From: a virus
Taxonomy: Duplodnaviria; Heunggongvirae; Uroviricota; Caudoviricetes
Length of the DNA stretch: 36,679 nucleotides
Reading direction: 5' to 3' (one strand)
Virus record (IMG/VR): IMGVR_UViG_2579778919_000010
A model generated the notes under the pieces. That model did no database searches. It was not told the origin of the DNA and worked only from the letters and a program-made list of their open reading frames with translations. Within the stretch, counting starts at the first letter, position 1; every line of letters begins with the position of its first letter. The position numbers and the translations under genes were made by a program. Shown here piece by piece: positions 1 through 36,679 of the stretch.

Positions 1-231
1 ATGAGTGAAGGACCAGGCGGGCCACAGGGAGCGACCGCAGGCGGTACGCTGGCAATGCGAATGCTGTCACAGCAGGCGATGGTCGCCAGCCAGATGAAAC
101 GGGCAGCCAACGACAAAGCCATTGCACAGATGTTGGCATCAAAAAAGTCTGGCCCCCCCGCCGCCAGGCTGGGTGCCGCGCGCCAATCAAAACGCGACAC
201 ATTGACAACTAACATTGGATCGCGTTTGTGA
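1..231 (+). pseudogene. 5' part of a gene split by the prophage insertion. Codons 1-57 are native; the last 19 codons (174..231) are read out of the prophage terminus until a stop
   Basis: ORF is open from the ATG at 1 (an upstream frame ends with TGA at 2-4, giving an ATGA overlap) and crosses the inferred junction at 173/174. Joined to 33070..33832 it reads ...SGPPAARLG/DEIQHKSFLGALAGAVLGAIV..., recreating AARxxDxxxH followed by hydrophobic helices. An internal ATG at 130 would put the motif at residues 11-20. Confidence 0.6.
169..173. repeat. Target-site duplication CTGGG, copy next to the prophage right (R) end
   Basis: CTGGG at 169-173 directly precedes TG at 174; the same pentamer is at 33065-33069 directly after CA at 33063-33064. 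Mu-type transposition makes 5-bp duplications. Confidence 0.6.
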
Positions 232-238
232 TCATGAT
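174..238. promoter_or_regulatory. Prophage right-end (attR-like) terminal region, probable transposase-binding sites
   Basis: TGCCGCGCGCCAATCAAAACGCGACACATTGACAAC... begins with TG and shares the AAAACGCGA core with the recalled Mu R1 site (about 11 of 16 matches over one 16-nt stretch); lies between the terminus and the gin stop. Confidence 0.45.
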
Positions 239-793
239 TTATATGTCAGATGCTGGGAATCGTTTGTACAGAGTTGAGATTCCGACGTCATAAATTAGGG
301 CCACCCTCTGACGAGTTTCGCCAGCCGCTAACAATCTTCCAGCCTGCGCCCACTGTTCAGGTGTTAACTTAGGTCTTCGACCTCCCACGCGCCCCTCAGC
401 TCGCGCAGCAGCCAGACCTGCACGTGTACGTTCAACAATCAGTTCACGTTCCATCTCGGCCAATGCCCCCATAACATGAAAAAAGAAGCGCCCCATTGGC
501 GATGAAGTATCTATGCTGTCAGTCAGACTTTTAAAGTTGATACCTCGCTCGCGTAGTTCTTCCACCAGTCCAACCAGATGACGCATGCTGCGTCCGAGGC
601 GATCAAGCTTCCAGACCACGAGGGTGTCACCTTCAGATAGCGTTCTGAGTACCCGTTTTAGTCCGGGTCTGTCTGAGGTTCTGCCGCTTATCTTGTCTTC
701 AAAAATCAGCTCACATCCTGCACATTCCAGCGCATTACGCTGTAATGCCGTGTTCTGGTCATTTGTTGATACACGTACATAGCCAATAAGCAT
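239..793 (-). CDS. gin: Serine DNA invertase, Gin/Pin/Hin/Cin family
   Basis: Translation from MLIGYVRVSTNDQNT... with catalytic-serine motif YVRVS, GDTLVVWKLDRLGRS and C-terminal HTH (ALIYDVGISTLYKR). ORF track begins 12 codons upstream at 829; the conserved N-terminus argues for 793. Confidence 0.93.
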   Translation of the reverse strand: MLIGYVRVSTNDQNTALQRNALECAGCELIFEDKISGRTSDRPGLKRVLRTLSEGDTLVVWKLDRLGRSMRHLVGLVEELRERGINFKSLTDSIDTSSPMGRFFFHVMGALAEMERELIVERTRAGLAAARAEGRVGGRRPKLTPEQWAQAGRLLAAGETRQRVALIYDVGISTLYKRFPASDI

Positions 794-847
794 GGTTAAA
801 CTCACTTTAAATGGCGGGAATAATGCCATTTGAGCGACTAACGATCA

Positions 848-873
848 TTATCGAAAACGTTGGTTTAATTGGT
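848..873. repeat. gix/hix-like invertase crossover site A, next to gin
   Basis: TTATCGAAAACG-TT-GGTTTAATTGGT: left half matches the hix/gix half-site TTATCAAAAACC in 10 of 12 positions; about 55 bp upstream of the gin start; inverted relative to site B. Confidence 0.6.
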
Positions 874-1446
874 AAATCAAATCGTCGTAATCGTAGACCG
901 GCATCTGATGAACTGGACATGCTCATTGAAGGTCTTCAACAACGATCTACACATAAATGCTCAAAAATTCCGTTCGTTGATATCCTCAAATTTTCTGTGT
1001 GGTCATGTATGCGAATCGGTGAAGTATGCCGATTACGATGGGAGGATCTCGATCAGGAACAAAAATCCATACTCGTAAGAGACAGGAAAGATCCACGTAA
1101 AAAGGAAGGCAACCATATGAAAGTAGCCTTGCTTGGGGAAGCCTGGGATATCGTCCAACGACAACCCAAAAAATCAGAATTCATTTTTCCATATAACAGC
1201 ACTTCTGTTACTGCGGGATTCCAGAGGGTAAGAAGCAAATTAGGTATTAAAGATCTGCGATACCATGATTTGCGTAGAGAAGGGGCAAGTCGCTTATTTG
1301 AGGCTGGTTTTAGTATTGAGGAAGTCGCCCAGGTTACAGGGCATCGTTCATTAAACGTGCTATGGCAGGTATATACCGAACTGTATCCGAAATCTTTACA
1401 TAATCGTTTTGAAGAGCTCCAAAGGAGCAGAAATAAGACCTCTTGA
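862..1446 (+). pseudogene. Tyrosine recombinase catalytic-domain remnant (no N-terminal domain, no own start) in the alternate arm of the invertible segment
   Basis: MRIGEVCRLRWEDLD (box I-like), DLRYHDLRREGASRLFEAGFSIEEVAQVTGHRS (box II-like) and a conserved Y in LWQVYTELY. The ORF-track N-terminus 811-861 lies outside the segment over the gin promoter/site A and is discounted. Confidence 0.55.
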
Positions 1447-1507
1447 CACTGTTTATCCATACAGTTAAAAATAATACTGTATACAACCACAGTATAGAGG
1501 GACTTTT
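1443..1507 (+). promoter_or_regulatory. LexA-regulated promoter: -35 TTGACA, -10-like TAAAAA(T), two SOS boxes
   Basis: TTGACA at 1443-1448; CTGT-N8-ACAG at 1449-1464 (cactgtttatccatacagtt) and at 1477-1492 (tactgtatacaaccacagta); AGAGGGA Shine-Dalgarno before the ATG at 1508. Confidence 0.7.
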
Positions 1508-2038
1508 ATGCGTATTGAAATCTGCATAGCCAAAGAAAAAATGACTAAAATGCCAACCGGTGCTGTGGATGCGTTAAAGGAAGAATTAACCCGACGCATC
1601 AGTAAACGTTATGACGATGTAGAGGTGATCGTAAAAGCCACCAGCAACGATGGCCTTTCTGTTACACGCACCGCAGATAAGGATTCTGCAAAAACTTTTG
1701 TTCAGGAGACTCTGAAAGATACCTGGGAATCTGCTGACGAGTGGTTTGTTCAGAGTCGGTTCTTACTGCATCCTTTTCACTGGGGATTGATGGGCCCAAG
1801 CGTGGATCACTCACGCGTCAGTGAGTGGAGCGCGTGTCTCAATAATGACCTGGAGCGTTTTGTCGATATTTTGGAGAGTCAGATTGAGCTCAGTAAGAGC
1901 CGCAATGAGTGGAAGGAGGTTATCTCCGCCGCCACCATAGCCAATGCCTCCACAGCTCTGGATTGGGGGATGGTTCACGAGGTTGCCGCCGCCACTTACC
2001 CGCAGGCACCCGGCACATACTGGTGGATTAACTGTTAA
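1508..2038 (+). CDS. DinI-like protein with an unusual ~95-residue C-terminal extension
   Basis: First ~81 residues [31 protein letters not shown]...[15 protein letters not shown] resemble E. coli DinI; ORF runs on to 176 aa with no stop where DinI normally ends. Confidence 0.7.
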
Positions 2039-2197
2039 CATAATTACCTCTCAAATTTAAATTGGGCAGAGATGCCAGCATCCAGGCTCGCGCCTGGACG
2101 ATTGTCTGATGATGAAAAGTGCAGTTTAATCTGTGGCTGGATTATCTGGATGCACTGGAGCTGGTTGATACCTCCAGTGCGCCAGATATTGAATGGC

Positions 2198-2590
2198 CTA
2201 CTCCTCCGGCAGTTCAGGCCAGATGACATCCGGTGCGGTGCTGGTATCTGTTGCCGTCACAGCGTCGATATAATCCAGCACAGCGTTAAGTCGGGTTGTT
2301 TCTGCCTGCGTCAACTTCCGTCCGGCCTGTAATTTCAGTTGAATCAGACTAATGGAAGCCATAGCTGCATCAATCAGCGACTGGCGCTGTGCTTCTGCCT
2401 CACGAAGTAATTCATCATGTGTTTTTGGCGGCTGCATAGGTGACGAAAGCTTTCCCTTATCATAGAACCAACCAATTCTTACATTATCGGATACAGGTAT
2501 AACTAACGCATTAGTTGGTTGCCAGGCACTCTCACCATCCCATACAGCAATATTGGTAACAACACCATTTTCTATAACGGCATAGTTCAT
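2198..2590 (-). CDS. U: Tail fibre assembly protein (U/Tfa-like)
   Basis: MNYAVIENGVVTNIAVWDG... N-terminus typical of Tfa chaperones; its start overlaps the fibre stop (TGATG); directly downstream of the fibre gene. Confidence 0.8.
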   Translation of the reverse strand: MNYAVIENGVVTNIAVWDGESAWQPTNALVIPVSDNVRIGWFYDKGKLSSPMQPPKTHDELLREAEAQRQSLIDAAMASISLIQLKLQAGRKLTQAETTRLNAVLDYIDAVTATDTSTAPDVIWPELPEE

Positions 2591-3558
2591 CACGCATACT
2601 CCCAAATGATTGCAATACCAGCCATTCCTCTACCTCCGGCACGCTGCTGCGTCGTTCCACCGTAGACACAGGCACCACTGCCTCCACCACCATGGCCATT
2701 AGCATTAATACCTTCGCCTACAATGGCTTGTGACCCAGCCCCCGCACCAAGGATTGAATCGCCGCCAGGCCCCCCCATCGCCAGACTGCCGGAATACCGA
2801 ACGCCTGGTGAGCTATAACCGCTTCCAGACACGATAATATTGGCACCTGTAAATCCCGGCTCAGTATATGCTCCATACGGACCAACAACCCCAGGAACAG
2901 TGCCTTCAGCAAGAACATTCCCACCAAGACCACCTTTGGCAATTATGGTATTGCCGAAAGAGGTTGCTCCCCCGGGAGCACCAACCGACGCACTTGCACC
3001 AGTGCCACCATATCCTATTGTCACAGTAGTTACGGTTGGATTATCCACGCGAGCTTTAACATACTCCCCGGACATCCCCCCGCCACCACAAGCAGCATTA
3101 TTGGGATAACCGACCTGACAACCACCACCGGCCCCACCACCACCAACAATTTCAACAATAATAAATCTTGTGCCTTTTGTCGGAGTGTATGTACCTGAGC
3201 TTTTAAACACCTGACACTGTATAAGCCTCCCGGAGCCATCTCCCAAACCAAGGTTTGTGAGAGCCGCCGCGATTGCTGCCGCACCATCTGCTTTAATGTC
3301 GCCAAATGGATTGGAACGACTCAGAAACAGTTTTTTGAGAGCGACCAGAATCTGCGTGTTGTCCATTTTGTCAGGATCAATCCCAGCGGCCTTGAGAATA
3401 TTGAGCAGCTCGCTTTGAATGACATTAAACCAGTCCGGTCCGGGATACGTCGGAGGAACGCCATTACCTCCTTCAGTAAAGAAAAGCTCGGTCTCACTGG
3501 TGACAGGAGACGGTTGTGGCATAACCGGAACACCGGTTGAATTATCTACGTGAAACAT
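2590..3558 (-). CDS. S: Tail fibre protein (S-like); residues ~1-103 constant, ~104-322 inside the invertible segment
   Basis: 322 aa with glycine-rich C-terminal region (GGGGAGGG, GYGGTGAS); follows the DUF2313-like gene; crossover site B is encoded at codons 100-105 (LTNLGL). Confidence 0.8.
   Translation of the reverse strand: MFHVDNSTGVPVMPQPSPVTSETELFFTEGGNGVPPTYPGPDWFNVIQSELLNILKAAGIDPDKMDNTQILVALKKLFLSRSNPFGDIKADGAAAIAAALTNLGLGDGSGRLIQCQVFKSSGTYTPTKGTRFIIVEIVGGGGAGGGCQVGYPNNAACGGGGMSGEYVKARVDNPTVTTVTIGYGGTGASASVGAPGGATSFGNTIIAKGGLGGNVLAEGTVPGVVGPYGAYTEPGFTGANIIVSGSGYSSPGVRYSGSLAMGGPGGDSILGAGAGSQAIVGEGINANGHGGGGSGACVYGGTTQQRAGGRGMAGIAIIWEYA
3238..3263. repeat. gix/hix-like crossover site B, inside the tail-fibre gene
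   Basis: ATCTCCCAAACC-AA-GGTTTGTGAGAG; core AAACCAAGGTTT matches hixL (AAAACCAAGGTTTTT); its reverse complement aligns with site A (AAAC[G/C]TTGGTTT). Confidence 0.6.
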
Positions 3559-4148: not shown

Positions 4149-5209
4149 GTCAGCACTCCGATAGTGATAAGTTCATTCTGAGCACAGGGAATGTCAGCGG
4201 TCAGATTCAGCGTGTAATCCGTCACGCCAGATGCGGTGCCGATAGCAGTGCGAATCGCTGAAATGGGCAGCGTTTGTCCTGGTTGCAGCGTCTTCTGAAG
4301 CGTCAACAGGCGGGACTGGACAGCTTTACGCGTGGCCGGTGTATCCGGTGTTATGCCAATAATCATATTGACGGGACGGAGCACCAGTTCCACGGGCCAG
4401 ACTTCTATTCCTCCAGGTTTACCAACCCATACGCCAGTCGCCGGGTCGGTATGACGGAAAAGGTAATCTTCCATATTTTTCCGGTCCTGATATCCGGGGG
4501 TAATCACTGAACGATCGTCATAAACCCATGCCAGTCCGATTGTGCAGGGACCATGCCAGGCATCAAATGCCCACGCCCGACTGACACCAGCCATTTCTCG
4601 CGCCCAGATGACATAGTCATGCACAGCCCCACCAACGGGGGGATTGCGTTTACGGAATAAAAGCCGGTCAAGCAATTCAGAAACTGGCTCAATATCCGAA
4701 CCACCGATGATGCCTCCCGTACCCGTTAAACCAATACTTTCCACGCCGGGAACGGGGGACAGCAGGGTCAGGCTTTCACCTTCCGGAAGGTTTCCTGACG
4801 CGCCGGCATCGCTGGCCTGAATGGTTACAGTCATGACCCCATCTACAGGAACGCCGGAAGTCGTCACGGCATAAACAATACCGGTAGCGGTTTGCATCTC
4901 CATATCTTCCGGCAGCGGTGTATTCCCTTTAAATACCGCCGGCCCCGTAGCAAACGTGGCCTGTTTTCTGACGACGCCTTCGCTGGCCGCAGTCTCAATG
5001 ATGGTTTCATCATCAGATTTAACAGACGGAATAATCTGGTCTTTAATCCAGCTCTGATGGTCGTATAAATCACGAACCTGATTGCTGAATGAGGTATTTA
5101 GAGCTTTCTCAACGCCTACTGGCGGAAGTTTTTGCAGCCCCAGTTCAAAGGCAATATCTTTTTCGCCGTCAGTAATAAGCTTGCGCAGCGCGGGAACGTT
5201 ATAAGGCAT
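4133..5209 (-). CDS. Baseplate J-like protein (Mu gp47 / W)
   Basis: 358 aa, conserved position in the Mu tail module. Confidence 0.8.
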   Translation of the reverse strand: MPYNVPALRKLITDGEKDIAFELGLQKLPPVGVEKALNTSFSNQVRDLYDHQSWIKDQIIPSVKSDDETIIETAASEGVVRKQATFATGPAVFKGNTPLPEDMEMQTATGIVYAVTTSGVPVDGVMTVTIQASDAGASGNLPEGESLTLLSPVPGVESIGLTGTGGIIGGSDIEPVSELLDRLLFRKRNPPVGGAVHDYVIWAREMAGVSRAWAFDAWHGPCTIGLAWVYDDRSVITPGYQDRKNMEDYLFRHTDPATGVWVGKPGGIEVWPVELVLRPVNMIIGITPDTPATRKAVQSRLLTLQKTLQPGQTLPISAIRTAIGTASGVTDYTLNLTADIPCAQNELITIGVLTWPTV

Positions 5210-5651
5210 TAGCAGTGGACTCCCAGCGTTTACTTATTTCAATCCGGAGCGTCGTTTTATCCGGGCGGGTTAGAATGACAATAAAATTAATTCGGTCATT
5301 GCCGCTTATAGTGGCTGTGACTGCTGCATTACGCGCATAACCAGAACGTAAAAGCGGTTGCATAGAAAGCAGTGCATAATCTTCCACCCGCATTCTGACG
5401 GATTCCGTCAGCTTCTCGCGATCCAGCAACCAGAGTTTCGATCCCCACGGATAATCACTAAATGTGTCGCCGGGCCAGCCTCTCGGGTCCGATGAGTTAT
5501 CAGGAATAATGTCATCAGTATCAGCACGGACGTCGGTGAAAAGACAAATCAGAACCAAAGTGACCAGTCCTTCATCACGCGATAAACCATCATGGTTAAT
5601 TGTCAGTTCACCTCTGGAGAGTTGATTATTCCAGCTGATACCAATAGTCAT
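5199..5651 (-). CDS. Baseplate protein (Mu gp46 / V-like)
   Basis: 150 aa, synteny between the gp45-like and J-like genes. Confidence 0.7.
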   Translation of the reverse strand: MTIGISWNNQLSRGELTINHDGLSRDEGLVTLVLICLFTDVRADTDDIIPDNSSDPRGWPGDTFSDYPWGSKLWLLDREKLTESVRMRVEDYALLSMQPLLRSGYARNAAVTATISGNDRINFIVILTRPDKTTLRIEISKRWESTANAL

Positions 5652-6190
5652 TTCATCTCCGATGTTTTTTTGCCATCCCCGTCCATATGGAAATGCTCAA
5701 GAACAGATTTACCGGCGACCTGAATATCATTTGAAAATACAGATGGGCCGTTAACTTTTAATAATTTTGTATTTATCGCAAACAATTCGCCGGCATCGTA
5801 ATTAACCGATTTCCCTTTAACGTCGATAAGACCACCTTTTTTCAGGGTGATATAAGACTGACCATCGCCGTGATATAACCTGACCTCTCCATCCTCCAGA
5901 CCTTTTGGACGACAGCGCTTGTCTTCAACAGCGATTGCCACCAGACCTTCCCGGCGTCCCCCCACTGCCAGAATGAGTGCTTCTGAACCGACTGGCGGCA
6001 CAGACGTCAGGCCGTAGTTCTGGAAACGTTCAACATCATCATTGGTGGAATCCGCCAGAGACTGGATCTGGAGGTTCTGACGCCCGAGACTGTCTGTAAC
6101 GATACGAACAACGGCCCTGTCAACGAGCAATCGCAGCCGGCGTCCAATACCTTCAAGTGTGCGACCGATATTTGCCGGATTCAGTCCCAT
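5648..6190 (-). CDS. Baseplate assembly / spike protein (Mu gp45 / Q-like)
   Basis: 180 aa, synteny; coupled starts and stops with neighbours. Confidence 0.7.
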   Translation of the reverse strand: MGLNPANIGRTLEGIGRRLRLLVDRAVVRIVTDSLGRQNLQIQSLADSTNDDVERFQNYGLTSVPPVGSEALILAVGGRREGLVAIAVEDKRCRPKGLEDGEVRLYHGDGQSYITLKKGGLIDVKGKSVNYDAGELFAINTKLLKVNGPSVFSNDIQVAGKSVLEHFHMDGDGKKTSEMK

Positions 6191-7275: not shown

Positions 7276-8603
7276 TCTGTTACCTCGACAGGTTTACCCG
7301 GAAGAACGAACGCCGGGTCTTTCAATCGGTTCCTTGACGCGATGGCGTCACGGTTCTCGGTATTACCGGTTTCACGCCATGCAATCAGAGATACCGGGGA
7401 CGTTGTGGTCAGAATGACCGTTCGTGTCTGTGGTAGCTGAGCGCTTCTGACCCGCACGTCATTGACGACGGCAAAGCGCAGCTCGCGCAGGGCATGCCAC
7501 AAATTCCGCTGACCGTTTTCTACGGCATACACAGCTTGTTCATTCAGTTGCTCAGCCAGCGTGTCACCCGCACTTATGGCTTCCTCACTACTTCTGAACT
7601 CGGTGCTGGCAACGGTCTCTGCCTGTCCAATTAGGCTGGCAACGACAATCAGCTGACGAAAATGAGTGATGTTGGCCTGCATGGCATCGGTCAGTTCAGG
7701 GACAACGTCCGGAAGGCTGCTGGCAAAACCATACTTTCCGTCAGTCACTGAACCTGGTGTGACTGACATGTATTTGGGCAACTGGTGAAGTGCAGCGGCT
7801 GTCGCCCGGTCACTTGTATTTGTTGGCGAAACCGGCGACGACCACGGCGAAGATGAAGAACCGGAAAACTGATCTCCCTGCCACCGGTTGCGGATCTGAT
7901 CATAAACCCGCATTGACCAAAGAGGTTCGGTCACGGTGTCGCGTACACCGCTGACAAGGTTCAGAACATCATTGATAAATCCGGCTGGTTTCGCGACGGC
8001 CAGCTCAATCAACCCACGAAAACGCCCTAAACGGTCAGTCCATTCAGTAATCGCGGAGGGCAGCGTCAGCACACCCACTACCAGATTTTCCATGTCGTCC
8101 ATCCACGTATCGGCCATCTCACCAAGACCATCAAGCAGGGCAAAGACATCGCCATTCGCCAGCGCAGCTTTGACCTTATCCGCTGCGCTGAGTACCGTCA
8201 GGCTGGTATTTTCTGCCGGCGCAGGAAACAGGCGCTCGCCCGCCTCAGATACCTCAAAAGAGATGTAGGCAATGCCGCCTTCCTCAGTGCTCAGACGGTG
8301 AGTCACCTTACCAATCTGAACCTTCTGAATGCCGAACCACGGATGGATAAGTTCACCGGGTCCAGGTGTGTTCAGAGCCCGGAGAAGTGCCTCCAGTTGG
8401 CTCTGGTAGTTCTTTCCAATCAGCTTGCCGTTGATTTGCTGTTGGGTCAGAACGGCACCGTTATCCTCGGTCCAGCCCACTTCTTTTTTGGGGTAGGCGC
8501 GGGGAATTGCCCGACGGCCGCTGGTGCCTTCGTTATCGACCAGATAAAACGAGACGCCCCGGAACGAAGCATCGCGCAGGTCTTCCCATCGGGTAGCAGC
8601 CAT
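7272..8603 (-). CDS. N: DNA circularisation protein N (Mu gp43-like)
   Basis: 443 aa directly downstream of the tape measure gene, as in Mu. Confidence 0.75.
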   Translation of the reverse strand: MAATRWEDLRDASFRGVSFYLVDNEGTSGRRAIPRAYPKKEVGWTEDNGAVLTQQQINGKLIGKNYQSQLEALLRALNTPGPGELIHPWFGIQKVQIGKVTHRLSTEEGGIAYISFEVSEAGERLFPAPAENTSLTVLSAADKVKAALANGDVFALLDGLGEMADTWMDDMENLVVGVLTLPSAITEWTDRLGRFRGLIELAVAKPAGFINDVLNLVSGVRDTVTEPLWSMRVYDQIRNRWQGDQFSGSSSSPWSSPVSPTNTSDRATAAALHQLPKYMSVTPGSVTDGKYGFASSLPDVVPELTDAMQANITHFRQLIVVASLIGQAETVASTEFRSSEEAISAGDTLAEQLNEQAVYAVENGQRNLWHALRELRFAVVNDVRVRSAQLPQTRTVILTTTSPVSLIAWRETGNTENRDAIASRNRLKDPAFVLPGKPVEVTD

Positions 8604-10522
8604 CAGCCTTGCTCCACGCTGGACACGCCAGCAGATGCACTAAGTTTGATATCCGGCTGGTTCATGGTGACGCTTTTAACACGGCCACCGCCACCCTCAA
8701 GGATCACGCGGATTTCACCCTGCATTTTCTGTAGGGTTGTGGGTAATGCAGGTGGCTGAACAGGCTTATCAAACGCGTTTTTGTTTTCAATTGCGGCGTT
8801 GGTGCCACGCAGAAAATCAACGATGACACCAAACAAAGAATGATCACTCGTTTCAGGGCGCGGTCTGTCTGCCGGGGGATTTTCAGCCGCAGGAATGAAC
8901 GGCGTCGCCGGGGTCAGTGATGCCCACGGGCGCGGGTCAATAACCGGTTTCTCATTTGCTTTGCGTTTGGCACGATCCTTTGCCCACTGAACCATGCCAG
9001 CTTTGTCATCACTGCTCAGTGATGGTTCTTCATAAAGGTATGGAATAGTTGACGCCAGCATGGTCAGGCCGACCATTTCCTGTGGGCTGCCAGGACGTCT
9101 GGGACTATTAGGTTTACGGGGATTTTTTCCATCAGGTCCATCGGGGATTAAATCACCCGGCCCCCCCATCCCACCTTTGCCCATGTTCACGACATAAACG
9201 GGCATAACACCGGAGCCAAAAACATCGGAGACGCCTTTAGGGATGCCTTTTCCGCCTTTTTCTGGCTGGAGAAACTCCCATGCACCTTTACCAATTTTAA
9301 ATGCTTTACGTGCCGCAATGACTCCAGCGGTCGCAATGGCTATTTTCTTGCCGACTTCCAGCCAGTTCTGAACCGTCTTTTGATCAACTGAATTGATAGC
9401 ATCAGCCAGGTCCTGTACCGGGCCGGCAAGATTGCTGTTAGAAAACTTCTTCCAGGTAACATTCAGGCTGGTCAGTGCCGAAGTAAAATCTTTCGCCGCA
9501 TATTCAGCATCTTTCATGATGCCTGTGCCGTCCCCGACAACTGACTGGTATCGCTTGAGGTTTTCTGCTCCTTTACCAGAGGTGGCACTGCTGATAAGTA
9601 AAATACTGTCCTGGTTAAAACCGGCTTCCAGGAGTCTTTTATTCTGTTTCTCAGAACCTTTACTCCCTGATTTTTTAGCGATTTCCTCCAGGAGTGTTGG
9701 AAGTGATCGCATCTTCCCATCTTTGTCATAAACGTTGACACCATTCTTTCGAAGGGTGCTAACAACCTTTGGCAACTGCAGATCACGAATAAGGTTTTCA
9801 GTCGCCGTGGCTGCTGTATCACGGTTGCCTGTGGCATCAATGGCTGATTCCAGTACAACGCCTACGTCTTTGACTCCCTTAACGCCACTCCCGCCAGCAG
9901 CGGAGTACATAGAGAAGGCTCTGACGCCTTTTTCTGCAATGTCTTTCAGCTCAAATGCGCCTTCTTTTCCCAGAAGGTTTAACGTGTCCATAGCTGCAAG
10001 CGTCTGCTTTTCAGTCTGAAGACCAAATTTGGGGAACTGAGAAAACAGTCCGCCAATCGAATCCCCCTGAGAGCCTGATGCAGCGATAGAGGCGGCTATC
10101 ATGCCCTTATTCTGAATACCGAAATCCAGATCACCGGTCGTTTTGTTGACATTCTCCAGTGCGGCCAACACCTCCGAGTCATCCACCCGGAATTTGATGG
10201 CGGTATCCTGAATACCATCAAAGATATTGCGCATCTCATCACGAGTTTTACCGGCGGCAATACCCAGCCCGGTTAATTGTCGATCTGTTTTAGCAAATTC
10301 TCTCAGCGCTGCGCCGCTGGCAAGGCCGGCAATCATCGTTGTATAGCGATTACTGAGCATGTCCAGACCACGTCCGGCAGATTCAGACGCGGCCTTAACA
10401 ACAGACATTGCTTTCTGGTTACGGCTGGCAAACTCGCTCATGTTAGCGCCGTACTGGCGGGCTTTAGCCGTCAGGTTCCCGGCAAGGTTAATCAGAATTT
10501 CAGTGCTTAGGCGGTTTGTCAT
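8603..10522 (-). CDS. Tail tape measure protein (Mu gp42-like)
   Basis: 639 aa, Gly/Ala-rich with a GKGGMGGPG stretch; lies between the chaperone and N. Confidence 0.85.
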   Translation of the reverse strand: MTNRLSTEILINLAGNLTAKARQYGANMSEFASRNQKAMSVVKAASESAGRGLDMLSNRYTTMIAGLASGAALREFAKTDRQLTGLGIAAGKTRDEMRNIFDGIQDTAIKFRVDDSEVLAALENVNKTTGDLDFGIQNKGMIAASIAASGSQGDSIGGLFSQFPKFGLQTEKQTLAAMDTLNLLGKEGAFELKDIAEKGVRAFSMYSAAGGSGVKGVKDVGVVLESAIDATGNRDTAATATENLIRDLQLPKVVSTLRKNGVNVYDKDGKMRSLPTLLEEIAKKSGSKGSEKQNKRLLEAGFNQDSILLISSATSGKGAENLKRYQSVVGDGTGIMKDAEYAAKDFTSALTSLNVTWKKFSNSNLAGPVQDLADAINSVDQKTVQNWLEVGKKIAIATAGVIAARKAFKIGKGAWEFLQPEKGGKGIPKGVSDVFGSGVMPVYVVNMGKGGMGGPGDLIPDGPDGKNPRKPNSPRRPGSPQEMVGLTMLASTIPYLYEEPSLSSDDKAGMVQWAKDRAKRKANEKPVIDPRPWASLTPATPFIPAAENPPADRPRPETSDHSLFGVIVDFLRGTNAAIENKNAFDKPVQPPALPTTLQKMQGEIRVILEGGGGRVKSVTMNQPDIKLSASAGVSSVEQG

Positions 10523-19712: not shown

Positions 19713-21295
19713 CAGAGTAATCCCCGCTGATTTTTAAGACCCCGTGTGATGCGGACCTGACGGTGTTCATTACGCTCATCGGGGCGGGAAGGTTTCTTTA
19801 ACTTGTGGACTTCATAACGGCGGCAGTCCTCGCGACTGGCGAGGAAACCGAGAAAAATAGCGATAGCAGAGTCACCGTGACGCTTGCGGCCATCGGTGCC
19901 GGTAGTTCGTGCATCATCAATGCCCGGTACGCCGCGATAAAGCTGAATTGCGCCGAGGTCTGTGATCACATCTTCATGCTTTGGCAGTACCAGCTCATTG
20001 TCTTCGAATGCCGCACGGAACCGTGGCATGTTCTCCCGGTAGTATTTGACGGAAAGCTGCACCTGCTCAACTTCATCACCGTATTTTTCCGCCGCCTGTT
20101 CTGCCAGATACTGACCGTTACCCCGCGCATCGAGCTTGATGCCGTCACGGCGGGGAAGCCTGTCACAGATATAAAACAGCGCCTGCTCCTGCTGTTTAAA
20201 TGGCACATTGCTGAGTTCCACCAGGAACGGGACGTTGCGCGTCGTGTCATCGTTGACTGTCACCGGTGCAAACACGGTCAGGTCACCATTACGCGCAAAG
20301 TCCTCCCCCAGACAGTGGCGCAGGTTCTGCGGCAGCTTCTCCAGTTCGGGTAGTACGACCGTCTCCAGCCATTCCTGCATTTCCACACGGCGCAGTCCGT
20401 CCGGCATCGCGTTAAAATCAGCCGTACCGGTGAAGCGCAGGACAACGGTCGGACCTCTGGCCGCACGTTCGCGCAGGGAACGTGCGATATAGACGCCACC
20501 GCCGTTCTTCGGCTCGCAGTAGTATTCCTCGCGGGCATCTTCCTCTGTGGCCGTGTCGCTCAGCAGGTTAGCCAGCCATTCCGCTTCGGCCTCCACAGAC
20601 CAGACTTTTTTTGTAACCTGACAGATGCGCTGATACAGCCCCTCTGCAATGGCCGTTTCAATATCGACGTGATGGACAGAGTAGCGTTTTTTCCCGGCCC
20701 GGCTGTCGGTGATGATGGTGTTAAACAGGTTATCAATACCGTTGTGAGTGGAAATAAGGCGAACATTATTCCCCCACATTGTCAGCGCCAGCGCCGCCTT
20801 GAGTACCGCTGCAAGGTCAGCCTGGAATGCGGCCTCATCAATGATGACGTTACCCTGCATACCACGCAGGTTCGACGGGTTAGACGACAGCGCCTTGATT
20901 TTGTAGCCACTGGCGAACTGGATGACATAGACCAGGATGTCTTTGTCTTCATCCTTCAGCACTTCTTCACCAATGCCAGACGCGGCGCGGTCATAGGCTT
21001 TCGCCCACATGGCACAGGCATCAATAAACTCACGGGCCATGTCTTTCGTTGTGCCGACGTAGAATGTGTCGCACCCACCGGCCTCCACCGACATTGAGCC
21101 GTTGAGGGCCGCGTCAGCGGCTTCCGCCCAGGTCAGACCGGTACGACGCGACTTCTCGGCAATCTTCAGTTGAGAGGAGTCGGCAATCCACCGCTTCTGG
21201 TAGGGAAGCAGTAGCTGGCTTTTGTCGAACTCGCCCGACAGGATAGCCGCAGCGGACTGACTGGTGAGTGTTCTGTCCGGCGTCATCGTCGTCAT
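19712..21295 (-). CDS. Terminase large subunit (Mu gp28-like)
   Basis: 527 aa; size and position. Confidence 0.85.
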   Translation of the reverse strand: MTTMTPDRTLTSQSAAAILSGEFDKSQLLLPYQKRWIADSSQLKIAEKSRRTGLTWAEAADAALNGSMSVEAGGCDTFYVGTTKDMAREFIDACAMWAKAYDRAASGIGEEVLKDEDKDILVYVIQFASGYKIKALSSNPSNLRGMQGNVIIDEAAFQADLAAVLKAALALTMWGNNVRLISTHNGIDNLFNTIITDSRAGKKRYSVHHVDIETAIAEGLYQRICQVTKKVWSVEAEAEWLANLLSDTATEEDAREEYYCEPKNGGGVYIARSLRERAARGPTVVLRFTGTADFNAMPDGLRRVEMQEWLETVVLPELEKLPQNLRHCLGEDFARNGDLTVFAPVTVNDDTTRNVPFLVELSNVPFKQQEQALFYICDRLPRRDGIKLDARGNGQYLAEQAAEKYGDEVEQVQLSVKYYRENMPRFRAAFEDNELVLPKHEDVITDLGAIQLYRGVPGIDDARTTGTDGRKRHGDSAIAIFLGFLASREDCRRYEVHKLKKPSRPDERNEHRQVRITRGLKNQRGLL

Positions 21296-29854: not shown

Positions 29855-31837
29855 TTATTTCCGTGCCTGTTTAGCCTTATTAACAAACTGCTGGAAAATA
29901 ACGTCGTTTTCGCTCTGCGTTTCCTGTATGTCCTCCACGCGCTTGACGGTGTTGCCCAGGGTAAATACACGCTCCACCACATGCCGCTCCGGCAGTTCTG
30001 CATGCTCAGTCTTCGGCAGCAGGTCATTCACCTCAATCGCCGTCATACGGTTCAGAGCCTTAGTCGCTTTCTTCGTACTCTTGATCATCTCGCGGCGTGC
30101 ACGGTTGTGTTCACGTCCAGCCTCGGTATCGCCAAAGGCCACGGCGGCACGACACTCAGCCATGCAAAGGAAACGGCCGTCGAGGTCATAACAGGCGACT
30201 TCTCCGTGCAGGTTCCTTGGATCAAACCGGACGGTGATTTTGCGCGAGCGGTGGCTGACGAGCTGTTCACTCCAGTAAGTATTCTTACGGCCAAATAACG
30301 AGCCCCCGCACTCCATCGTAAATTCGCCTGTAGTCTTCACGCGTACAGCTTCCGCAGGCAGCATCAGTTGACGAATTTGCTCTTCGGTCATACGGGTGAT
30401 GACTGACTGGCTGTAGCTGCGCTCAAACGCCTGGTCGAAGGACAGTTCCCCCCGGCACATCTCGGTCTCGCGCCCGGCCTTCGCGTTGAACATGGCGACA
30501 CCTTCGCTGATGGTTTCCAGGAATGTATCCACATCCACCGCCCGGCTGCCGTAGTTCTCTGGCTTGGAGCTGACGTTTTCACCGGCAAATGCTCCAGCCA
30601 GCGCAGGATGTTTGTCGATATATTCGCCCAGACCGCCCACGCCGAAGGCACGTTCAACGGGCTTTGCCTGTCCCCAGCCCTTACCGCCAATCACCCCCGT
30701 CCAGTGCAGCTTCATTCCCAGCAGAGGGATGATCCCCATCGGGTCATCAGGTTTGACTTTGAAGCGGTAACGGTTAGGAACGCCACCGGACAGCCATTTA
30801 TTTGCAGCAGCGCGGGTGTTATCGATGGTCACATGTTTAGGCTTACCGTAAGCGCGGATGGTATCCATCAGGGATAAACGGATGCTGTCACTGTTCTCCG
30901 ACAAATCAGCACGCCAGCCAATAATTTTGCGACTGTGGACATCCTGCCAGAACCACGTTTTAGGACGGATGATGTCGCCGTTAAACCAACGGACAAACAC
31001 GTTGTGCTGGTAACCGTCGCCATTGATCCACTCCATCGCATGAAGATATGCCACGGTGCGCTGCTGCGACGGATACATCTGCGCCAGCGCGTTCTCGCCC
31101 TCACGGGTGGCAACGACGATACGCGGATCAACTTCACGTTCTAGCTTGCGGCGCAGAGTGCGCTCAGCGGGAATAATCCAGCCATGAGCATCTGCCGCCT
31201 TTTCAAGGCGCTCATAGCTTTTGGAGAAGAACGGCGCTTCGTTTCGCAGATAATCGCCCAGGAAGAACTGCCAGGCATCTTCAGAGATATCGGCAGTCCG
31301 GCCAGTCTGACGTTTTTCACGCACACGGCGGTCAAGCAGTACCGGACCCCAGAGGTCAGGACTATGGTCTTTGACTTTGTAGTAAAGATTGCGCAGCGTA
31401 CCTTCACTGATTTGCAGCTGTTTTGCTGCCAGCGTGATCGCCTTACGATTGCCGATGCCGGAAGCCATCAGTTCCGCCACCAGCGCGGCAGCTTTAGTCC
31501 GGCGTTCTGCATGCAGACGCTGCTCGCCGGTAGCTTTCTCCCATGCAGACCACAGTCGCTGGCGTTCCAGATCGTCAGCCGCCACGCGCTCAGGCTCCTG
31601 TGGCAATGTAATCAGCCCGGATGATGTTTCAATCAGGCCACGTGCGGCCAGCAGTTCAGCGCGGACTTCAGGTGGCAACACCGATATGTGGTATTCGAAT
31701 GCTTTGGTGCCAGCACGTTTACGGCGTAGTTCACTACGTCCACTGACAAAAGACTCCAAATGTTTTCTGACGTTCTTTTCTGCATTAGGAAAAGAACAAA
31801 TTCCTACGCATTCTTTTGCGGTAACCCAGAAATCCAT
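29855..31837 (-). CDS. A: Mu-type DDE transposase A
   Basis: 660 aa; long collinear similarity to MuA as recalled ([36 protein letters not shown]..., [19 protein letters not shown]..., LLPAEAV...). Confidence 0.95.
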   Translation of the reverse strand: [660 protein letters not shown]

Positions 31838-32767: not shown

Positions 32768-33064
32768 TTGCAAAAGTGCTCAATTGGCTGGCTTTACCTT
32801 CGCACCTCCTGTGGGCATTTTAAGCTGAGTTTAAATCCCGTTAAACGCTTTGAAATTAACTGCTATACGATCCAAATCTATGTGACACTTAACTGGCTTC
32901 GCTATCGAATGATCCAAAATTGACGATATGCCAGATTTTCCACAAGTCGAGTAGCTTAACGTTGTGCGAAGCCTCACAACTCAAGCCTTCCTCCCGTTAA
33001 TTCCCATGAATTCCCGGTTATTCCCGGGTTCTCTGTTTGATCCATACATCACTGTCACTAGTCA
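32768..33064. promoter_or_regulatory. Prophage left-end (attL-like) terminal region
   Basis: Non-coding stretch between the c stop and the inferred CA terminus; contains three exactly 10-bp-phased ATTCCC repeats (33000, 33010, 33020) and GATCCAAA(T/A) repeats. Confidence 0.45.
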
Positions 33065-33069
33065 CTGGG
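33065..33069. repeat. Target-site duplication CTGGG, copy next to the prophage left (L) end
   Basis: Identical to 169-173; follows CA at 33063-33064. Confidence 0.6.
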
Positions 33070-33832
33070 CGATGAAATTCAGCACAAGAGTTTTTTGGGG
33101 GCGCTGGCAGGGGCCGTACTGGGGGCGATAGTGACCATCGCAGAAGGTTGCCTGATTATGGCCGCCTGTGCCACCGGCCCTTATGCGCTGGTTCTGGTGC
33201 CTGCGCTGATGTATGCCAGCTATAAGGCGAGTGATTATGTGGAGGAGAAACAGAACCAGCTTGAATCATGGATAAACAGCTTTTGTGACACGGACGGCGC
33301 CATCAATACCGGTTCTGAAAACGTAAAAATTAACGGCGAGCTGGCCGCACGTGCAGCGGTCACCCTTCCCCCTCCTCCCCCACCTGGAGCAATACCTGAA
33401 GTCCCACAGGGGGAACCCTCATGGGGTGATATTGCCACTGACCTGCTTGAATCGGCAGCGGAAAAAGCAGTACCACTGGCGAAGGCCTGGGGGAACGCTG
33501 TTATCACCCTGACGGACAGCAATGCCGGTTTTATGGATCGCGTCAGCGCCGGCGCATCGCTTCTGTTTCCCGCCGGTCCGGTATTAATGGAGTTTGCCAC
33601 CATGGTGGGCGGGCGTGGCGAAATCAAAAAAGAGGTGGATTTCCCGGAAGCCGGTGAGGACACGGCGCTCTGCGACAAGGAGAACAAACCACCGAGGATA
33701 GGCGCGATCACTTTCATCTACTCCGTTACAAAGCGAGGCTGGGTATTTCCCGGCCTTTCTGTTATCAGAAATCCACTGAAAGCACAGCGGCTGGCTGAGG
33801 CGATAAATAATAAACGGGGGCTGTATGACTGA
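33070..33832 (+). pseudogene. 3' part of the split gene: hydrophobic helices, a PAAR-like motif and a C-terminal domain of unknown function
   Basis: Frame open from the junction (DEIQHKSFLGALAGAVLGAIVTIAEGCLIMAACATGPYALVLVPALMY...NVKINGELAARAAV...PPPPPPG...); the ORF track shows only the TTG-initiated part from 33095; stop overlaps the dam-like start by 8 nt. Confidence 0.6.
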
Positions 33833-34382
33833 TTTCACCGGAAGCAATACTCCTGCCGAACATCGCGACAGCTGGCGCACACCACCAGAGATTTTTGCTG
33901 CGCTTAATGCAGAGTTCGTTTTTCAACTTGATGCTGCCGCCAGCGAAAAAAACCGACTATGTCGGCTTTTTATCTCACAGGAGCAGAACACATTAACCAC
34001 TTCATGGCCTGAAGCAATGGGATATGCCTCTGGTTATGTCTGGTTGAATCCACCATACAGCAATATTTCCCCTTTTGTGAAAAAGGCAGCCACTGAAAAC
34101 AAATTCAGTAGTGTGGGATGTGTAATGTTATTGCCTGCTGACACATCTGTCGGATGGTTTCATGAAGCGATACAAACCGCCAGTGAGGTCAGATTCATCA
34201 CGGCAGGACGACTGGCATTTATTAACCCACTCACTGAGAAACCCGTCAGTGGAAATAATAAAGGCTCGATGCTCATTATCTGGCACCCATACCCCCGTAC
34301 ACACTGCCACTTTACGACCGTTGATCGTGGAGAGTTGATGGCGTTCGGCTCAAGGATTCTTGCCCGTCGGGAGGCTGCATGA
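33825..34382 (+). CDS. Phage-type DNA N6-adenine methyltransferase (Dam family)
   Basis: WRTPPEIF...LDAAAS...VWLNPPYS (NPPY motif IV)...LLPADTSVGWF; 185 aa. Confidence 0.8.
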   Translation: MTDFTGSNTPAEHRDSWRTPPEIFAALNAEFVFQLDAAASEKNRLCRLFISQEQNTLTTSWPEAMGYASGYVWLNPPYSNISPFVKKAATENKFSSVGCVMLLPADTSVGWFHEAIQTASEVRFITAGRLAFINPLTEKPVSGNNKGSMLIIWHPYPRTHCHFTTVDRGELMAFGSRILARREAA

Positions 34383-34462
34383 CAACCACGGAATGCATTT
34401 TTCTGGCAGCGGGCTTCATATTCTGTGTGCTTATGCTTGCCGACATGGGACTTGTTCAATGA
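34379..34462 (+). CDS. Putative 27-aa hydrophobic peptide, translationally coupled on both sides
   Basis: ATGACAACCACGGAATGCATTTTTCTGGCAGCGGGCTTCATATTCTGTGTGCTTATGCTTGCCGACATGGGACTTGTTCAATGA encodes MTTTECIFLAAGFIFCVLMLADMGLVQ; ATGA overlaps with the dam stop and with the next start. Confidence 0.4.
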   Translation: MTTTECIFLAAGFIFCVLMLADMGLVQ

Positions 34463-34674
34463 CACCTCAGCAGGAAAACGCCCTTCGCAGCATTGCCCGT
34501 CAGGCTAATTCTGAAATCAAAAAAGCCAGACAGCAGTTTCCGGATAAAAACGTCGATGACATTTGCCGTAGCGTACTTAAGAAGCACCGCGAAACGGTAA
34601 CGCTGATGGGATTCACACCGACTCATTTAAGCCTGGCGATCGGCATGTTAAACGGCGTCTTTAAGGAACGGTGA
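34459..34674 (+). CDS. Hypothetical small protein
   Basis: Start MTPQQENALRSIARQ... coupled to the upstream peptide; ORF track extends it 5' to 34360. Confidence 0.5.
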   Translation: MTPQQENALRSIARQANSEIKKARQQFPDKNVDDICRSVLKKHRETVTLMGFTPTHLSLAIGMLNGVFKER

Positions 34675-34772
34675 ACATGAAAAGCAAAATCATCAGGGAG
34701 CTACAGGCTCCTTTTTTATTGTTCGCATTCATCCTCAAGCGTATTAACCAACAATTCAGGGATTAATGGAAG

Positions 34773-34991
34773 ATGGCAGACATCATTGATTCAGCATCAG
34801 AAATCGAAGAATTACAGCGCAATACAGCAATAAAAATGCGTCGTCAGAACTACCAGACTGTATCCGCAACTCATTGTTGTGAGTGTGGCGATCCGATAGA
34901 TGAGCGAAGACGCCTGGCTGTTCAGGGTTGTCGGACTTGTGCAAGTTGCCAGGAGGAGATCGAACTTAAGAACAAACAATGGGGACTGTGA
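34773..34991 (+). CDS. TraR/DksA-family C4 zinc-finger protein
   Basis: CCECGDPIDERRR...CRTCASCQ, a four-cysteine zinc-finger arrangement. Confidence 0.75.
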   Translation: MADIIDSASEIEELQRNTAIKMRRQNYQTVSATHCCECGDPIDERRRLAVQGCRTCASCQEEIELKNKQWGL

Positions 34992-35038
34992 TGGCCTCAA
35001 AGCAGCAAATTTCAACATCGTCCAACTGAGGTGTAAAA

Positions 35039-35317
35039 ATGTTCAGAATCATTTTTCCTAACACCTGGTACGTCGACCACCACGGCACTCCCTGCAAAAT
35101 CCTGCGTTCTACCCACAACAAAGTTCACTACATCCGAAAAGGCAGAACATGTATCGCCAGCATGTTCCGCTTTAATCATGACTTTGAACCTGTGAATAAA
35201 GCTGATGCAGATCGGATAGCAGAAGAGATCGAAACGGCAGAACACATTAAGAAGTTACGTGACATGCGTTCAAAAAGCAGAGGTAACCATGGAATCATAC
35301 AGCCTCACACTCGATGA
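35039..35317 (+). CDS. Hypothetical protein
   Basis: 92-aa ORF upstream of xis. Confidence 0.45.
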   Translation: MFRIIFPNTWYVDHHGTPCKILRSTHNKVHYIRKGRTCIASMFRFNHDFEPVNKADADRIAEEIETAEHIKKLRDMRSKSRGNHGIIQPHTR

Positions 35318-35660
35318 GGCCTGTCAGTTTCTTAAGATATCCAGACCAACCGCCACCAACTGGATACGAACAGGCCGCCTACAGGCAACACGTAAAGATC
35401 CAACCAAGCCAAAATCTCCTTACCTCACAACACGGCAAGCCTGCATTGCGGCGCTTCAGTCTCCGCTGCATACTGTCCAGGTGAGCGCGGGTGATGGCAT
35501 AACAGAGGAAAGAAAATGTCACTCTTCCGCAGAAATGAAATATGGTATGCCTCGTATTCGCTCCCGGGCGGGAAACGAATTAAGGAATCTCTTGGCACAA
35601 AGGACAAGCGGCAAGCTCAGGAGTTGCACGACAAGCGAAAAGCAGAACTCTGGCGAGTAG
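35289..35660 (+). CDS. xis: Excisionase-like DNA-binding protein
   Basis: [37 protein letters not shown]... HTH; directly upstream of and overlapping int. The 3' end is uncertain because the frame runs 145 nt into int. Confidence 0.6.
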
Positions 35661-36679
35661 AAAAGCTAGGGGATTTACCTGATGTCACTTTTGAAGAGGC
35701 CTGCCTAAGATGGCTTGAGGAAAAAGCTGATAAAAAATCTCTCGATTCAGATAAAAGCCGGATTGAGTTCTGGCTTGAACATTTTGAGGGTATAAGGCTT
35801 AAAGATATCTCGGAGGCAAAGATTTACTCTGCTGTAAGCAGAATGCATAACAGAAAGACGAAAGAAATATGGAAACAGAAAGTTCAGGCCGCCATCAGGA
35901 AAGGTAAAGAACTGCCTGTTTATGAACCAAAGCCAGTATCAACTCAGACAAAGGCAAAGCATCTTGCCATGATAAAGGCCATTCTCCGTGCTGCAGAACG
36001 CGACTGGAAGTGGCTGGAAAAAGCGCCTGTCATCAAGATACCAGCGGTCAGAAACAAGCGAGTCAGATGGCTGGAAAAGGAGGAAGCAAAACGCCTTATT
36101 GATGAGTGCCCCGAACCACTGAAATCTGTCGTCAAGTTTGCGCTGGCAACTGGTCTGAGAAAGTCGAACATCATAAATCTGGAATGGCAACAAATCGACA
36201 TGCAGCGACGAGTTGCCTGGGTGAATCCAGAAGAGAGCAAATCAAACCGCGCCATTGGTGTGGCGCTGAACGATACCGCCTGTAAAGTGTTGCGTGATCA
36301 AATAGGCAAGCATCACAAATGGGTGTTTGTACATACCAAGGCGGCTAAGCGAGCAGATGGAACATCAACGCCTGCGGTCAGGAAGATGCGCATCGACAGC
36401 AAGACATCATGGCTATCAGCTTGTCGTCGTGCAGGAATTGAAGATTTCCGTTTCCATGACCTCAGACACACCTGGGCAAGCTGGCTGATTCAGTCAGGCG
36501 TCCCATTATCAGTGCTTCAGGAAATGGGCGGATGGGAGTCCATAGAAATGGTTCGTAGGTATGCTCACCTTGCGCCTAATCATTTGACAGAGCATGCGAG
36601 GAAAATAGACGACATTTTTGGTGATAATGTCCCAAATATGTCCCACTCTGGAATTATGGAGGATATAAAGAAGGCGTAA
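35516..36679 (+). CDS. int: Tyrosine integrase (phage lambda-family; resembles the DLP12 IntD lineage as recalled)
   Basis: 387 aa; catalytic motifs ...[41 protein letters not shown]...; window ends at its stop codon. Confidence 0.9.

Follow-up and report, generated by a model that had tools for sequence, protein, structure and literature searches.

A Mu-like prophage within an rhs pseudogene, next to a lambdoid prophage stump at argU

The window analysed here is the whole 36,679-nucleotide stretch of the IMG/VR record IMGVR_UViG_2579778919_000010. Its source is a draft contig, ATJZ01000037.1; the complete Escherichia coli genome NZ_LR536431.1 is identical to it on both flanks and provides the corresponding empty site, devoid of the central prophage. 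The window starts at the ATG of an rhs pseudogene (position 1) and its last base is the last base of the int TAA stop codon. Between the Mu-like prophage and the window end, all ORFs lie on the + strand and head toward xis and int, in agreement with the sequence-only reading of this DNA. The features are as follows (argU lies outside the window and is given would-be window coordinates):

1-173, + strand: 5′ part of the rhs pseudogene, 100% identical to 19833-20005 of the NZ_LR536431.1 locus excerpt, annotated there as an Rhs pseudogene
169-173: left copy of the target-site duplication CTGGG; the two flank matches share these 5 bp in the empty site (20001-20005 of the NZ_LR536431.1 locus excerpt)
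174-33064, − strand: Mu-like transposable prophage, 32,891 bp long and lacking at the empty site, with MuA, Ner and repressor domains
33065-33069: right copy of CTGGG, read in the sequence and by comparison with the empty site
33065-33701, + strand: continuation of the rhs pseudogene to codon 268, 98-99.8% identical to vgrG-linked rhs 5′ ends
33095-33832, + strand: ORF called ‘effector-like’ in the sequence-only reading, the tail of an rhs′::′DUF1317 fusion
33699-33701: rhs/DUF1317 deletion junction, from a three-way alignment; the match to phage PhiR30_1 begins at 33699
33699-33832, + strand: 3′ part of DUF1317 (orf60a-like; PF07026, E 1.6e-22)
33825-34382, + strand: Dam, phage DNA N6-adenine methyltransferase (PF05869, E 2.3e-56)
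34459-34674, + strand: orf61-like small gene, hypothetical protein of 71 aa, from annotation in relatives, with no Pfam match
34773-34991, + strand: TraR/DksA-type zinc-finger protein (PF01258, E 2.7e-9)
35039-35317, + strand: DUF4222 protein (PF13973, E 1.9e-19)
35289-35660, + strand: xis (excisionase), full length (HTH_17; similarity to P22 Xis)
35516-36679, + strand: P22/DLP12-type tyrosine integrase (IntD), 387 aa, intact (PF00589, E 5e-47; annotated intD, WP_001299447.1)
36695-36771: argU, from a tRNA search of ATJZ01000037.1

The limits of the Mu-like prophage were read from the empty site. NZ_LR536431.1 is 100% identical to window positions 1-173 and 33065-36679, and the two matches share 5 bp: CTGGG is single and clean there, compared to the two copies which flank the prophage. 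The start of the arm to the right, previously set at 33070, is the first base past the right copy. Read directly, the prophage has TG...CA termini, and CTGGG conforms to CYSRG, the consensus of Mu target sites (PMC7350765). No long terminal inverted repeats linking the two ends were found among the 25 longest repeat pairs. Mu-type ends are expected to lack them, and it is the empty site that defines the boundaries, with the insertion in codon 58 of the rhs pseudogene.

The gene content is that of a Mu-like phage. At the right end lie genes for a c repressor, Ner, MuA and MuB, and at the left end a Gin-like invertase. MuA is a 660-aa ORF (29855-31837) with PF02914 (E 9e-112), PF09039, PF09299 and PF02316; MuB is a 312-aa gene (PF09077/AAA_22), Ner matches PF13693 (HTH_35) and the c-type repressor has a Mu DNA-binding domain (HTH_Tnp_Mu_1). 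Other called genes encode Gam, Mor, GemA and the Mu gp45-48 baseplate proteins. The element thus combines a MuA-family DDE transposase, MuB together with Ner and c, a 5-bp duplication with TG...CA termini and, as described below, scattered insertion sites. It shares with Mu the MuA, MuB, Ner and c genes at one end, a Gin-type invertase at the other, and Mor, GemA, Gam and the baseplate. Mu is longer (~37 kb versus 32.9 kb), and no com/mom-like gene was found beyond the invertase among the called genes (a gene-call listing rather than a dedicated search). The closest deposited phage, Klebsiella phage Kp4866-3, is not close (74.6% over 27% of the query). We also observed a small tyrosine recombinase and DinI-like cassette where relatives carry alternative tail-fibre genes.

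Both immediate flanks of this prophage belong to a single rhs gene. The left piece comprises codons 1-57 and two bases of codon 58, so that the insertion cuts through the prePAAR motif at aa 54-63 (AARLGDEIQH). Once reconstituted, the rhs′ protein matches prePAAR_I with 26.1 bits (cut-off 25), and the fragment is 98-99.8% identical to vgrG-linked rhs 5′ ends found in thousands of E. coli genomes. The intact O157 rhs gene encodes 1616 aa with prePAAR, PAAR, DUF6531 and RHS repeats. In the window the gene is cut at codon 268 and split at codon 58; the prePAAR motif is the sole survivor of the features of an Rhs/prePAAR T6SS effector, PAAR, DUF6531 and the RHS repeats being deleted. Compared to the vgrG-linked Rhs island which lies downstream of cusS in O157:H7, what persists at this locus is the dcrB-like fragment upstream of rhs′ and the prePAAR motif, whereas vgrG and the immunity gene have been lost, as have the PAAR domain, the RHS repeats and the toxin. 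The rhs′ fragment is a truncated chromosomal pseudogene of a T6SS effector and contains no prophage DNA.

Deletion junctions lie on both sides of the Mu-like prophage. To the right, three-way alignment of the window with the intact rhs gene and an intact exo-DUF1317 region placed the junction to the base: rhs codon 268 is joined in frame to about codon 9 of DUF1317, with a TAG microhomology (5 of 6 bases in GGRTAG). This junction lies 634 bp from the Mu end and is present in only one of 5,426 complete genomes. The left junction lies about 364 bp from the other Mu end. Left of position 1, ATJZ01000037.1 carries a 171-bp dcrB-like fragment and a 690-bp AT-rich spacer, then cusS; the genes cusB, cusF, cusC, cusR and cusS end 880 bp ahead of position 1. 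In 28 complete genomes the vgrG deletion is found combined with the rhs 5′ end. For comparison, the O157:H7 layout is cusS-vgrG-dcrB-rhs...nfrBA-ybcH-envY-argU, with no prophage at argU. K-12 has in addition ompT and appY between the rhs position and its prophage.

Beyond the right junction everything up to the window end is lambdoid. Positions 33699-36679 (2,981 bp) share 99.9% identity with the int arm of PhiR30_1, an isolated phage, so the layout of this arm is not a chance arrangement. The order is ′DUF1317, dam, orf61, TraR, DUF4222, xis, int; in PhiR30_1 and in full prophages it is exo, DUF1317, dam, orf61, TraR, DUF4222, (xis), int, and strain 2014C-3061 has a full lambdoid prophage ordered ...N-cIII-kil-gam-bet-exo-DUF1317-dam-...-intD-argU. 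These matches bear out the identification of the segment as the end of a lambda-type left operon. The xis gene overlaps the start of int, as in P22. Across 122 of 123 aa its product shares 76% identity with P22 Xis, and the ORF is 100% identical to one in phages ev243 and PhiR68_2 (tblastn against phages); no match was found among PDB sequences. RefSeq labels it a truncated HTH pseudogene, but the ORF is full length compared to P22 Xis and we rejected the idea that it is broken.

The attachment tRNA had been predicted to lie just beyond the window. The tRNA search found none inside it, and in ATJZ01000037.1 argU, encoding tRNA-Arg(UCU) (TCT in the DNA), starts 15 bp past the int stop and is followed by fimZ/sfm. 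Occupied and empty argU sites diverge exactly at the 3′ end of the tRNA. With int and xis beside a tRNA attachment site, the segment qualifies as DLP12-type. It shares with DLP12 and its live relatives (PhiR30_1, ev243) the site at the argU 3′ end, int directed toward the tRNA, the 15-bp gap, the same integrase protein (annotated intD) and the order DUF1317-dam-orf61-TraR-DUF4222-xis-int. DLP12 is about 20.5 kb long and its distal att repeats 47 bp of the argU 3′ end (PMC6379469). The segment at hand is far more reduced: only the last 3 kb are left, without replication, lysis or structural genes or a distal att, and, unlike in DLP12, a deletion has joined its inner edge to an rhs gene. A second att core was found neither in the window nor in the fetched loci, and the argU 3′ segment is single-copy on the 52-kb contig ATJZ01000037.1; because the contig holds no second att copy, the stump is unable to excise. 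Left of 33699, where rhs′, the dcrB-like fragment and cusS lie, nothing lambdoid was found that could represent the immunity, replication, lysis or morphogenesis modules. The segment is therefore a 3-kb remnant and no longer a prophage.

Taken together, we are confident that the cusS-argU interval is a decayed variable region shaped by three stacked events. A lambdoid prophage with a DLP12/P22-type integrase would have entered the 3′ end of argU, and a chromosomal vgrG/dcrB-like/rhs T6SS effector island, downstream of cusS, would have adjoined it. This ancestral layout is reconstructed from other strains, and a different set of genes may have been lost between rhs and the prophage. Two deletions followed, in an order which we infer from how widely each is shared. 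One took vgrG together with the 5′ portion of the dcrB-like gene. The second, by illegitimate recombination at the TAG microhomology, joined rhs codon 268 to DUF1317 near its codon 9. Gone with it are what remained of rhs, the intervening genes (in the O157 reference, nfrBA-ybcH-envY) and the prophage down to its last 2,981 bp; left behind are the in-frame rhs′::′DUF1317 fusion and a stump with one att junction. A Mu-like phage came last: it lysogenised by DDE transposition at CTGGG in codon 58 of rhs′ and duplicated these 5 bp. Both deletions are older than the Mu-like insertion, because the empty site in NZ_LR536431.1 already has both junctions. The limits of the elements, the junctions and this precedence of the deletions are demonstrated by the comparisons. 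It follows that the Mu-like prophage and the lambdoid stump are neighbours, 634 bp apart, and not nested.

The sequence-only reading had placed the Mu-like prophage inside the int-proximal arm of a larger prophage or island, with the remainder of the host element left of position 1. It is true that the genes to the right are the last ones of a lambdoid leftward operon, with int beside argU, and that such nesting occurs in ECONIH4, where the same Mu-like prophage has a lambdoid gpJ gene on one side and a tail assembly gene on the other. Against this, the first 634 bp right of the prophage are rhs and not phage, so that the insertion splits a chromosomal pseudogene outside the first prophage-derived base. 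On the left, instead of host-element DNA, come the start of rhs′, 880 bp of dcrB-like fragment and spacer, then the core genes cusS, cusR and cusCFB; nor does the contig hold a second att. The ‘effector-like gene’, read as a member of the operon, is instead the 5′ 268 codons of a vgrG-linked rhs fused by deletion to the stump. That reading was thus half right: of the two things to look for in the flanks, the tRNA beside int is present in its favour and the core genes upstream of position 1 are present to its detriment. The flanking sequence, as assembled in ATJZ01000037.1, refutes this model, and we consider nesting at this locus very unlikely.

Nesting could be saved formally if rhs′ were cargo (a moron) of the lambdoid element, and its in-frame fusion to DUF1317, in the same direction as the prophage operon, would fit. 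Yet in PhiR30_1 and in full prophages DUF1317 is preceded by exo and not by rhs, rhs′ still has the dcrB-like gene and the cusS spacer as neighbours, ordered as in O157:H7, whose argU carries no prophage, and the fusion is confined to the single genome noted above; the cargo hypothesis is extremely improbable. We give just as little credence to a history in which the Mu-like phage inserted first and caused an adjacent deletion, the empty site arising by later precise excision. Mu-type elements can generate adjacent deletions. However, Mu-promoted deletions start at the Mu end, whereas both junctions here lie away from the ends, and the empty site has a single clean CTGGG between flanks that are 100% identical. 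Precise excision of Mu, which this history needs, is extremely rare. The preferred reading remains that of deletions first and Mu-like insertion last.

The same Mu-like lineage was found elsewhere. The prophage and its relatives occupy six different sites in six genomes (five chromosomal sites besides the window). In ECONIH4 (E. coli) the element, 99.9-100% identical at both ends, is truly nested, its flanks being the lambdoid gpJ and tail assembly genes, whereas in the window no prophage DNA adjoins it directly on either side. Among the six independent insertions, two interrupt rhs genes, a different one each: the gene linked to cusS (the window) and the gene linked to ybbP (in NZ_LR536431.1); rhs genes make up ~1% of the genome, as a rough estimate. 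This rare lineage may prefer rhs genes as targets, a suggestion that we regard as unlikely. A search with the left end of the element matched only four genomes, too few for a test of such bias. A bias could come from G+C-rich rhs cores full of CYSRG/GGG pentamers, or from persistence of neutral insertions in rhs. Weaker still is the idea that the in-frame prePAAR-Rhs(1-268)::DUF1317 fusion might have been a functional chimera before the Mu-like insertion split it.

The window thus contains a Mu-like prophage that appears complete, an immobile DLP12-type stump of 3 kb at argU and, between them, a dead rhs fragment. Prophage predictors and readers of such loci should keep the int/xis arm separate from the Mu-like element and expect no second prophage to the left. 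The locus illustrates cleanly how an empty-site relative resolves element limits and the succession of events with single-base precision. What is corrected is an inference at the level of annotation, and the biology is little changed: mobile elements side by side in a decayed region are a known kind of situation, the outcome of ordinary genome decay.

The boundaries of the Mu-like prophage were obtained by comparison with a genome lacking it at this position. With 32900-36679 as a megablast query against 5,426 complete E. coli genomes, NZ_LR536431.1 was the sole genome matching 33065-36679 (100%); in other genomes, the match mostly began only at about 33692. Direct comparison then showed that the corresponding locus of NZ_LR536431.1 (L001) is 100% identical to window 1-173 (L001 19833-20005) and to window 33065-36679 (L001 20001-23615). 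These two flank matches share 5 bp, and this locus therefore represents the empty site. The Mu-like insert covers 174-33064 (32,891 bp), ending where the sequence-only reading had placed its boundary. It starts with TG, finishes with CA and is bordered on each side by one copy of a duplicated CTGGG, in agreement with the Mu target consensus 5′-CYSRG (PMC7350765). Its genes include those for MuA, Ner and a Mu-type repressor, together with MuB, Gam, Mor, GemA, a Mu-type baseplate and a Gin-like invertase.

The left part of the element carries a cassette of low G+C content (43-45%):

811-2038: small tyrosine recombinase of 211 aa (PF00589) and DinI-like protein of 176 aa

It lies between the Gin-like invertase and a tail-fibre assembly gene, the position of the alternative (invertible) tail-fibre genes in relatives of the phage, which diverge past window 866. 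Other E. coli prophages commonly carry this cassette.

The target, as annotated in the empty-site genome, is an Rhs pseudogene whose ATG is window position 1. The reconstituted rhs ORF carries the prePAAR motif AARLGDEIQH (prePAAR_I) at residues 54-63, and the Mu-like phage inserted at codon 58, within this motif. Thousands of E. coli genomes have vgrG-linked rhs genes whose 5′ end shares 98-99.8% identity with this truncated gene (rhs′). Where the locus is intact, as in O157:H7, the order is cusS, vgrG, dcrB-like, rhs, immunity and orphan toxin genes, ISAs1, nfrBA, ybcH, envY and argU, without a prophage at argU; the rhs there encodes 1616 aa with prePAAR, PAAR, DUF6531 and RHS repeats. The gene hit by the Mu-like phage is a dead, chromosomal rhs. 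The insertion also generated a chimeric 76-aa ORF (1-231), where 57 rhs codons run into the right end of the element. This ORF, predicted as a protein by gene callers, exists only at this insertion.

Credible ORFs between 33070 and the end of the window all lie on the + strand:

33095-33832, + strand: ORF of 245 aa, the final 45 residues being DUF1317
33825-34382, + strand: Dam (PF05869)
34459-34674, + strand: orf61-like gene, 71 aa
34773-34991, + strand: TraR/DksA zinc finger
35039-35317, + strand: DUF4222
35289-35660, + strand: HTH_17 ORF (xis)
35516-36679, + strand: tyrosine integrase, 387 aa

All run toward xis and int, as initially described, and the int TAA is the last codon of the window. 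Their proposed origin as the end of a lambda-type leftward operon is borne out by the isolated phage PhiR30_1, positions 41-3021 of which match 33699-36679 with 99.9% identity and the same gene order. PhiR30_1 reads cI ... kil-gam-bet-exo-orf60a(DUF1317)-dam-orf61-TraR-DUF4222-int, an order shared by the full prophage at argU in strain 2014C-3061. The ORF at 35289-35660 shows 76% identity to P22 Xis over 122/123 residues and, as in P22, overlaps int; xis is therefore intact. In many E. coli genomes, RefSeq (PGAP) labels it a 66-bp truncated ‘helix-turn-helix’ pseudogene. At 123 aa, the ORF is not truncated when compared with P22 Xis, and it is identical in isolated phages; the pseudogene label is probably artefactual, caused by the 145-nt overlap with int.

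Three-way alignment places the junction between rhs and prophage at 33699-33701, with TAG as microhomology (5/6 bases in GGRTAG). The deletion joined rhs codon 268 in frame to about codon 9 of DUF1317. The junction lies inside ORF 33095-33832, and the ‘effector-like gene’ previously assigned to the prophage operon is therefore the right-hand remainder of this rhs′::′DUF1317 fusion. Accordingly, the Mu-like prophage is not nested in the integrase arm, as had been suggested, but sits in rhs′, 634 bp outside prophage-derived DNA.

Nor does the rest of a host element lie left of position 1. On the source contig (GCA_000482045.1, ATJZ01000037.1; 52,008 bp), where window position 1 is contig position 8650, the upstream genes are those of the core cus operon (cusB, cusF, cusC, cusR, cusS). 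The 880 bp between the cusS stop and position 1 (7770-8649 of the contig locus, L004) consist of an AT-rich spacer and a 171-bp dcrB-like 3′ fragment, and are identical in the empty-site genome. Relative to O157, a separate deletion has taken out vgrG and some 290 nt at the start of the dcrB-like gene; the remaining 171 bp lie 20 bp upstream of the rhs′ ATG.

On the other side, the expectation of a tRNA and att site just past the window proved correct. No tRNA was found within the window; tRNA-Arg(TCT) argU begins 15 bp past the int stop, with fimZ and sfm genes beyond it. Occupied and unoccupied argU sites are the same throughout the tRNA and diverge directly beyond its 3′ end. A complete DLP12-type prophage is bounded at its far end by a 47-bp duplicate of the argU 3′ end (PMC6379469). 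On the whole 52,008-bp source contig, the argU 3′ segment occurs only once. What is left of the lambdoid element measures 3 kb; its int and xis are intact but, with a single att, it is immobile.

Both deletion junctions are present in the empty-site genome together with a single CTGGG, so the deletions predate the Mu-like insertion. Of the complete E. coli genomes in the collection, at least 28 share the vgrG deletion junction together with the rhs 5′ end, only one has the rhs::DUF1317 junction and none has the Mu-like insertion at this CTGGG. This distribution suggests that the vgrG deletion came first, followed by the rhs-to-prophage deletion and finally by Mu-like lysogeny.

The Mu-like prophage is rare (about 5/5,426 complete E. 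coli genomes). Relatives 98-100% identical occupy five other chromosomal sites in five genomes, as a transposable phage would. No close relative of 174-33064 was found among 50,697 deposited phage genomes, the best match being Klebsiella phage Kp4866-3 (74.6% identity, 27% of query). True nesting of the same phage in a lambdoid prophage does occur in E. coli ECONIH4 (NZ_CP026399.1), where the element, 99.9-100% identical at both ends, has a lambdoid gpJ gene on one side and a tail assembly gene on the other. The ECONIH4 copy carries an IS66 element within its tail-fibre region.

NZ_LR536431.1, the empty site here, has its own 98.4%-identical Mu-like prophage elsewhere, in another rhs gene (L007, 3800427-3813119, around locus 4859-6052), a DUF6531 protein gene adjoining ybbP. 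With the present insertion, 2/6 known insertions are thus in rhs genes. This is mildly curious, the sample being too small for interpretation, and could reflect chance, G+C or CYSRG richness, or the neutrality of rhs insertions.

All components of this region, the Mu-like prophage, the DLP12-type remnant at argU and the rhs pseudogene, belong to known types. That they lie side by side is ordinary decay of a hypervariable interval.
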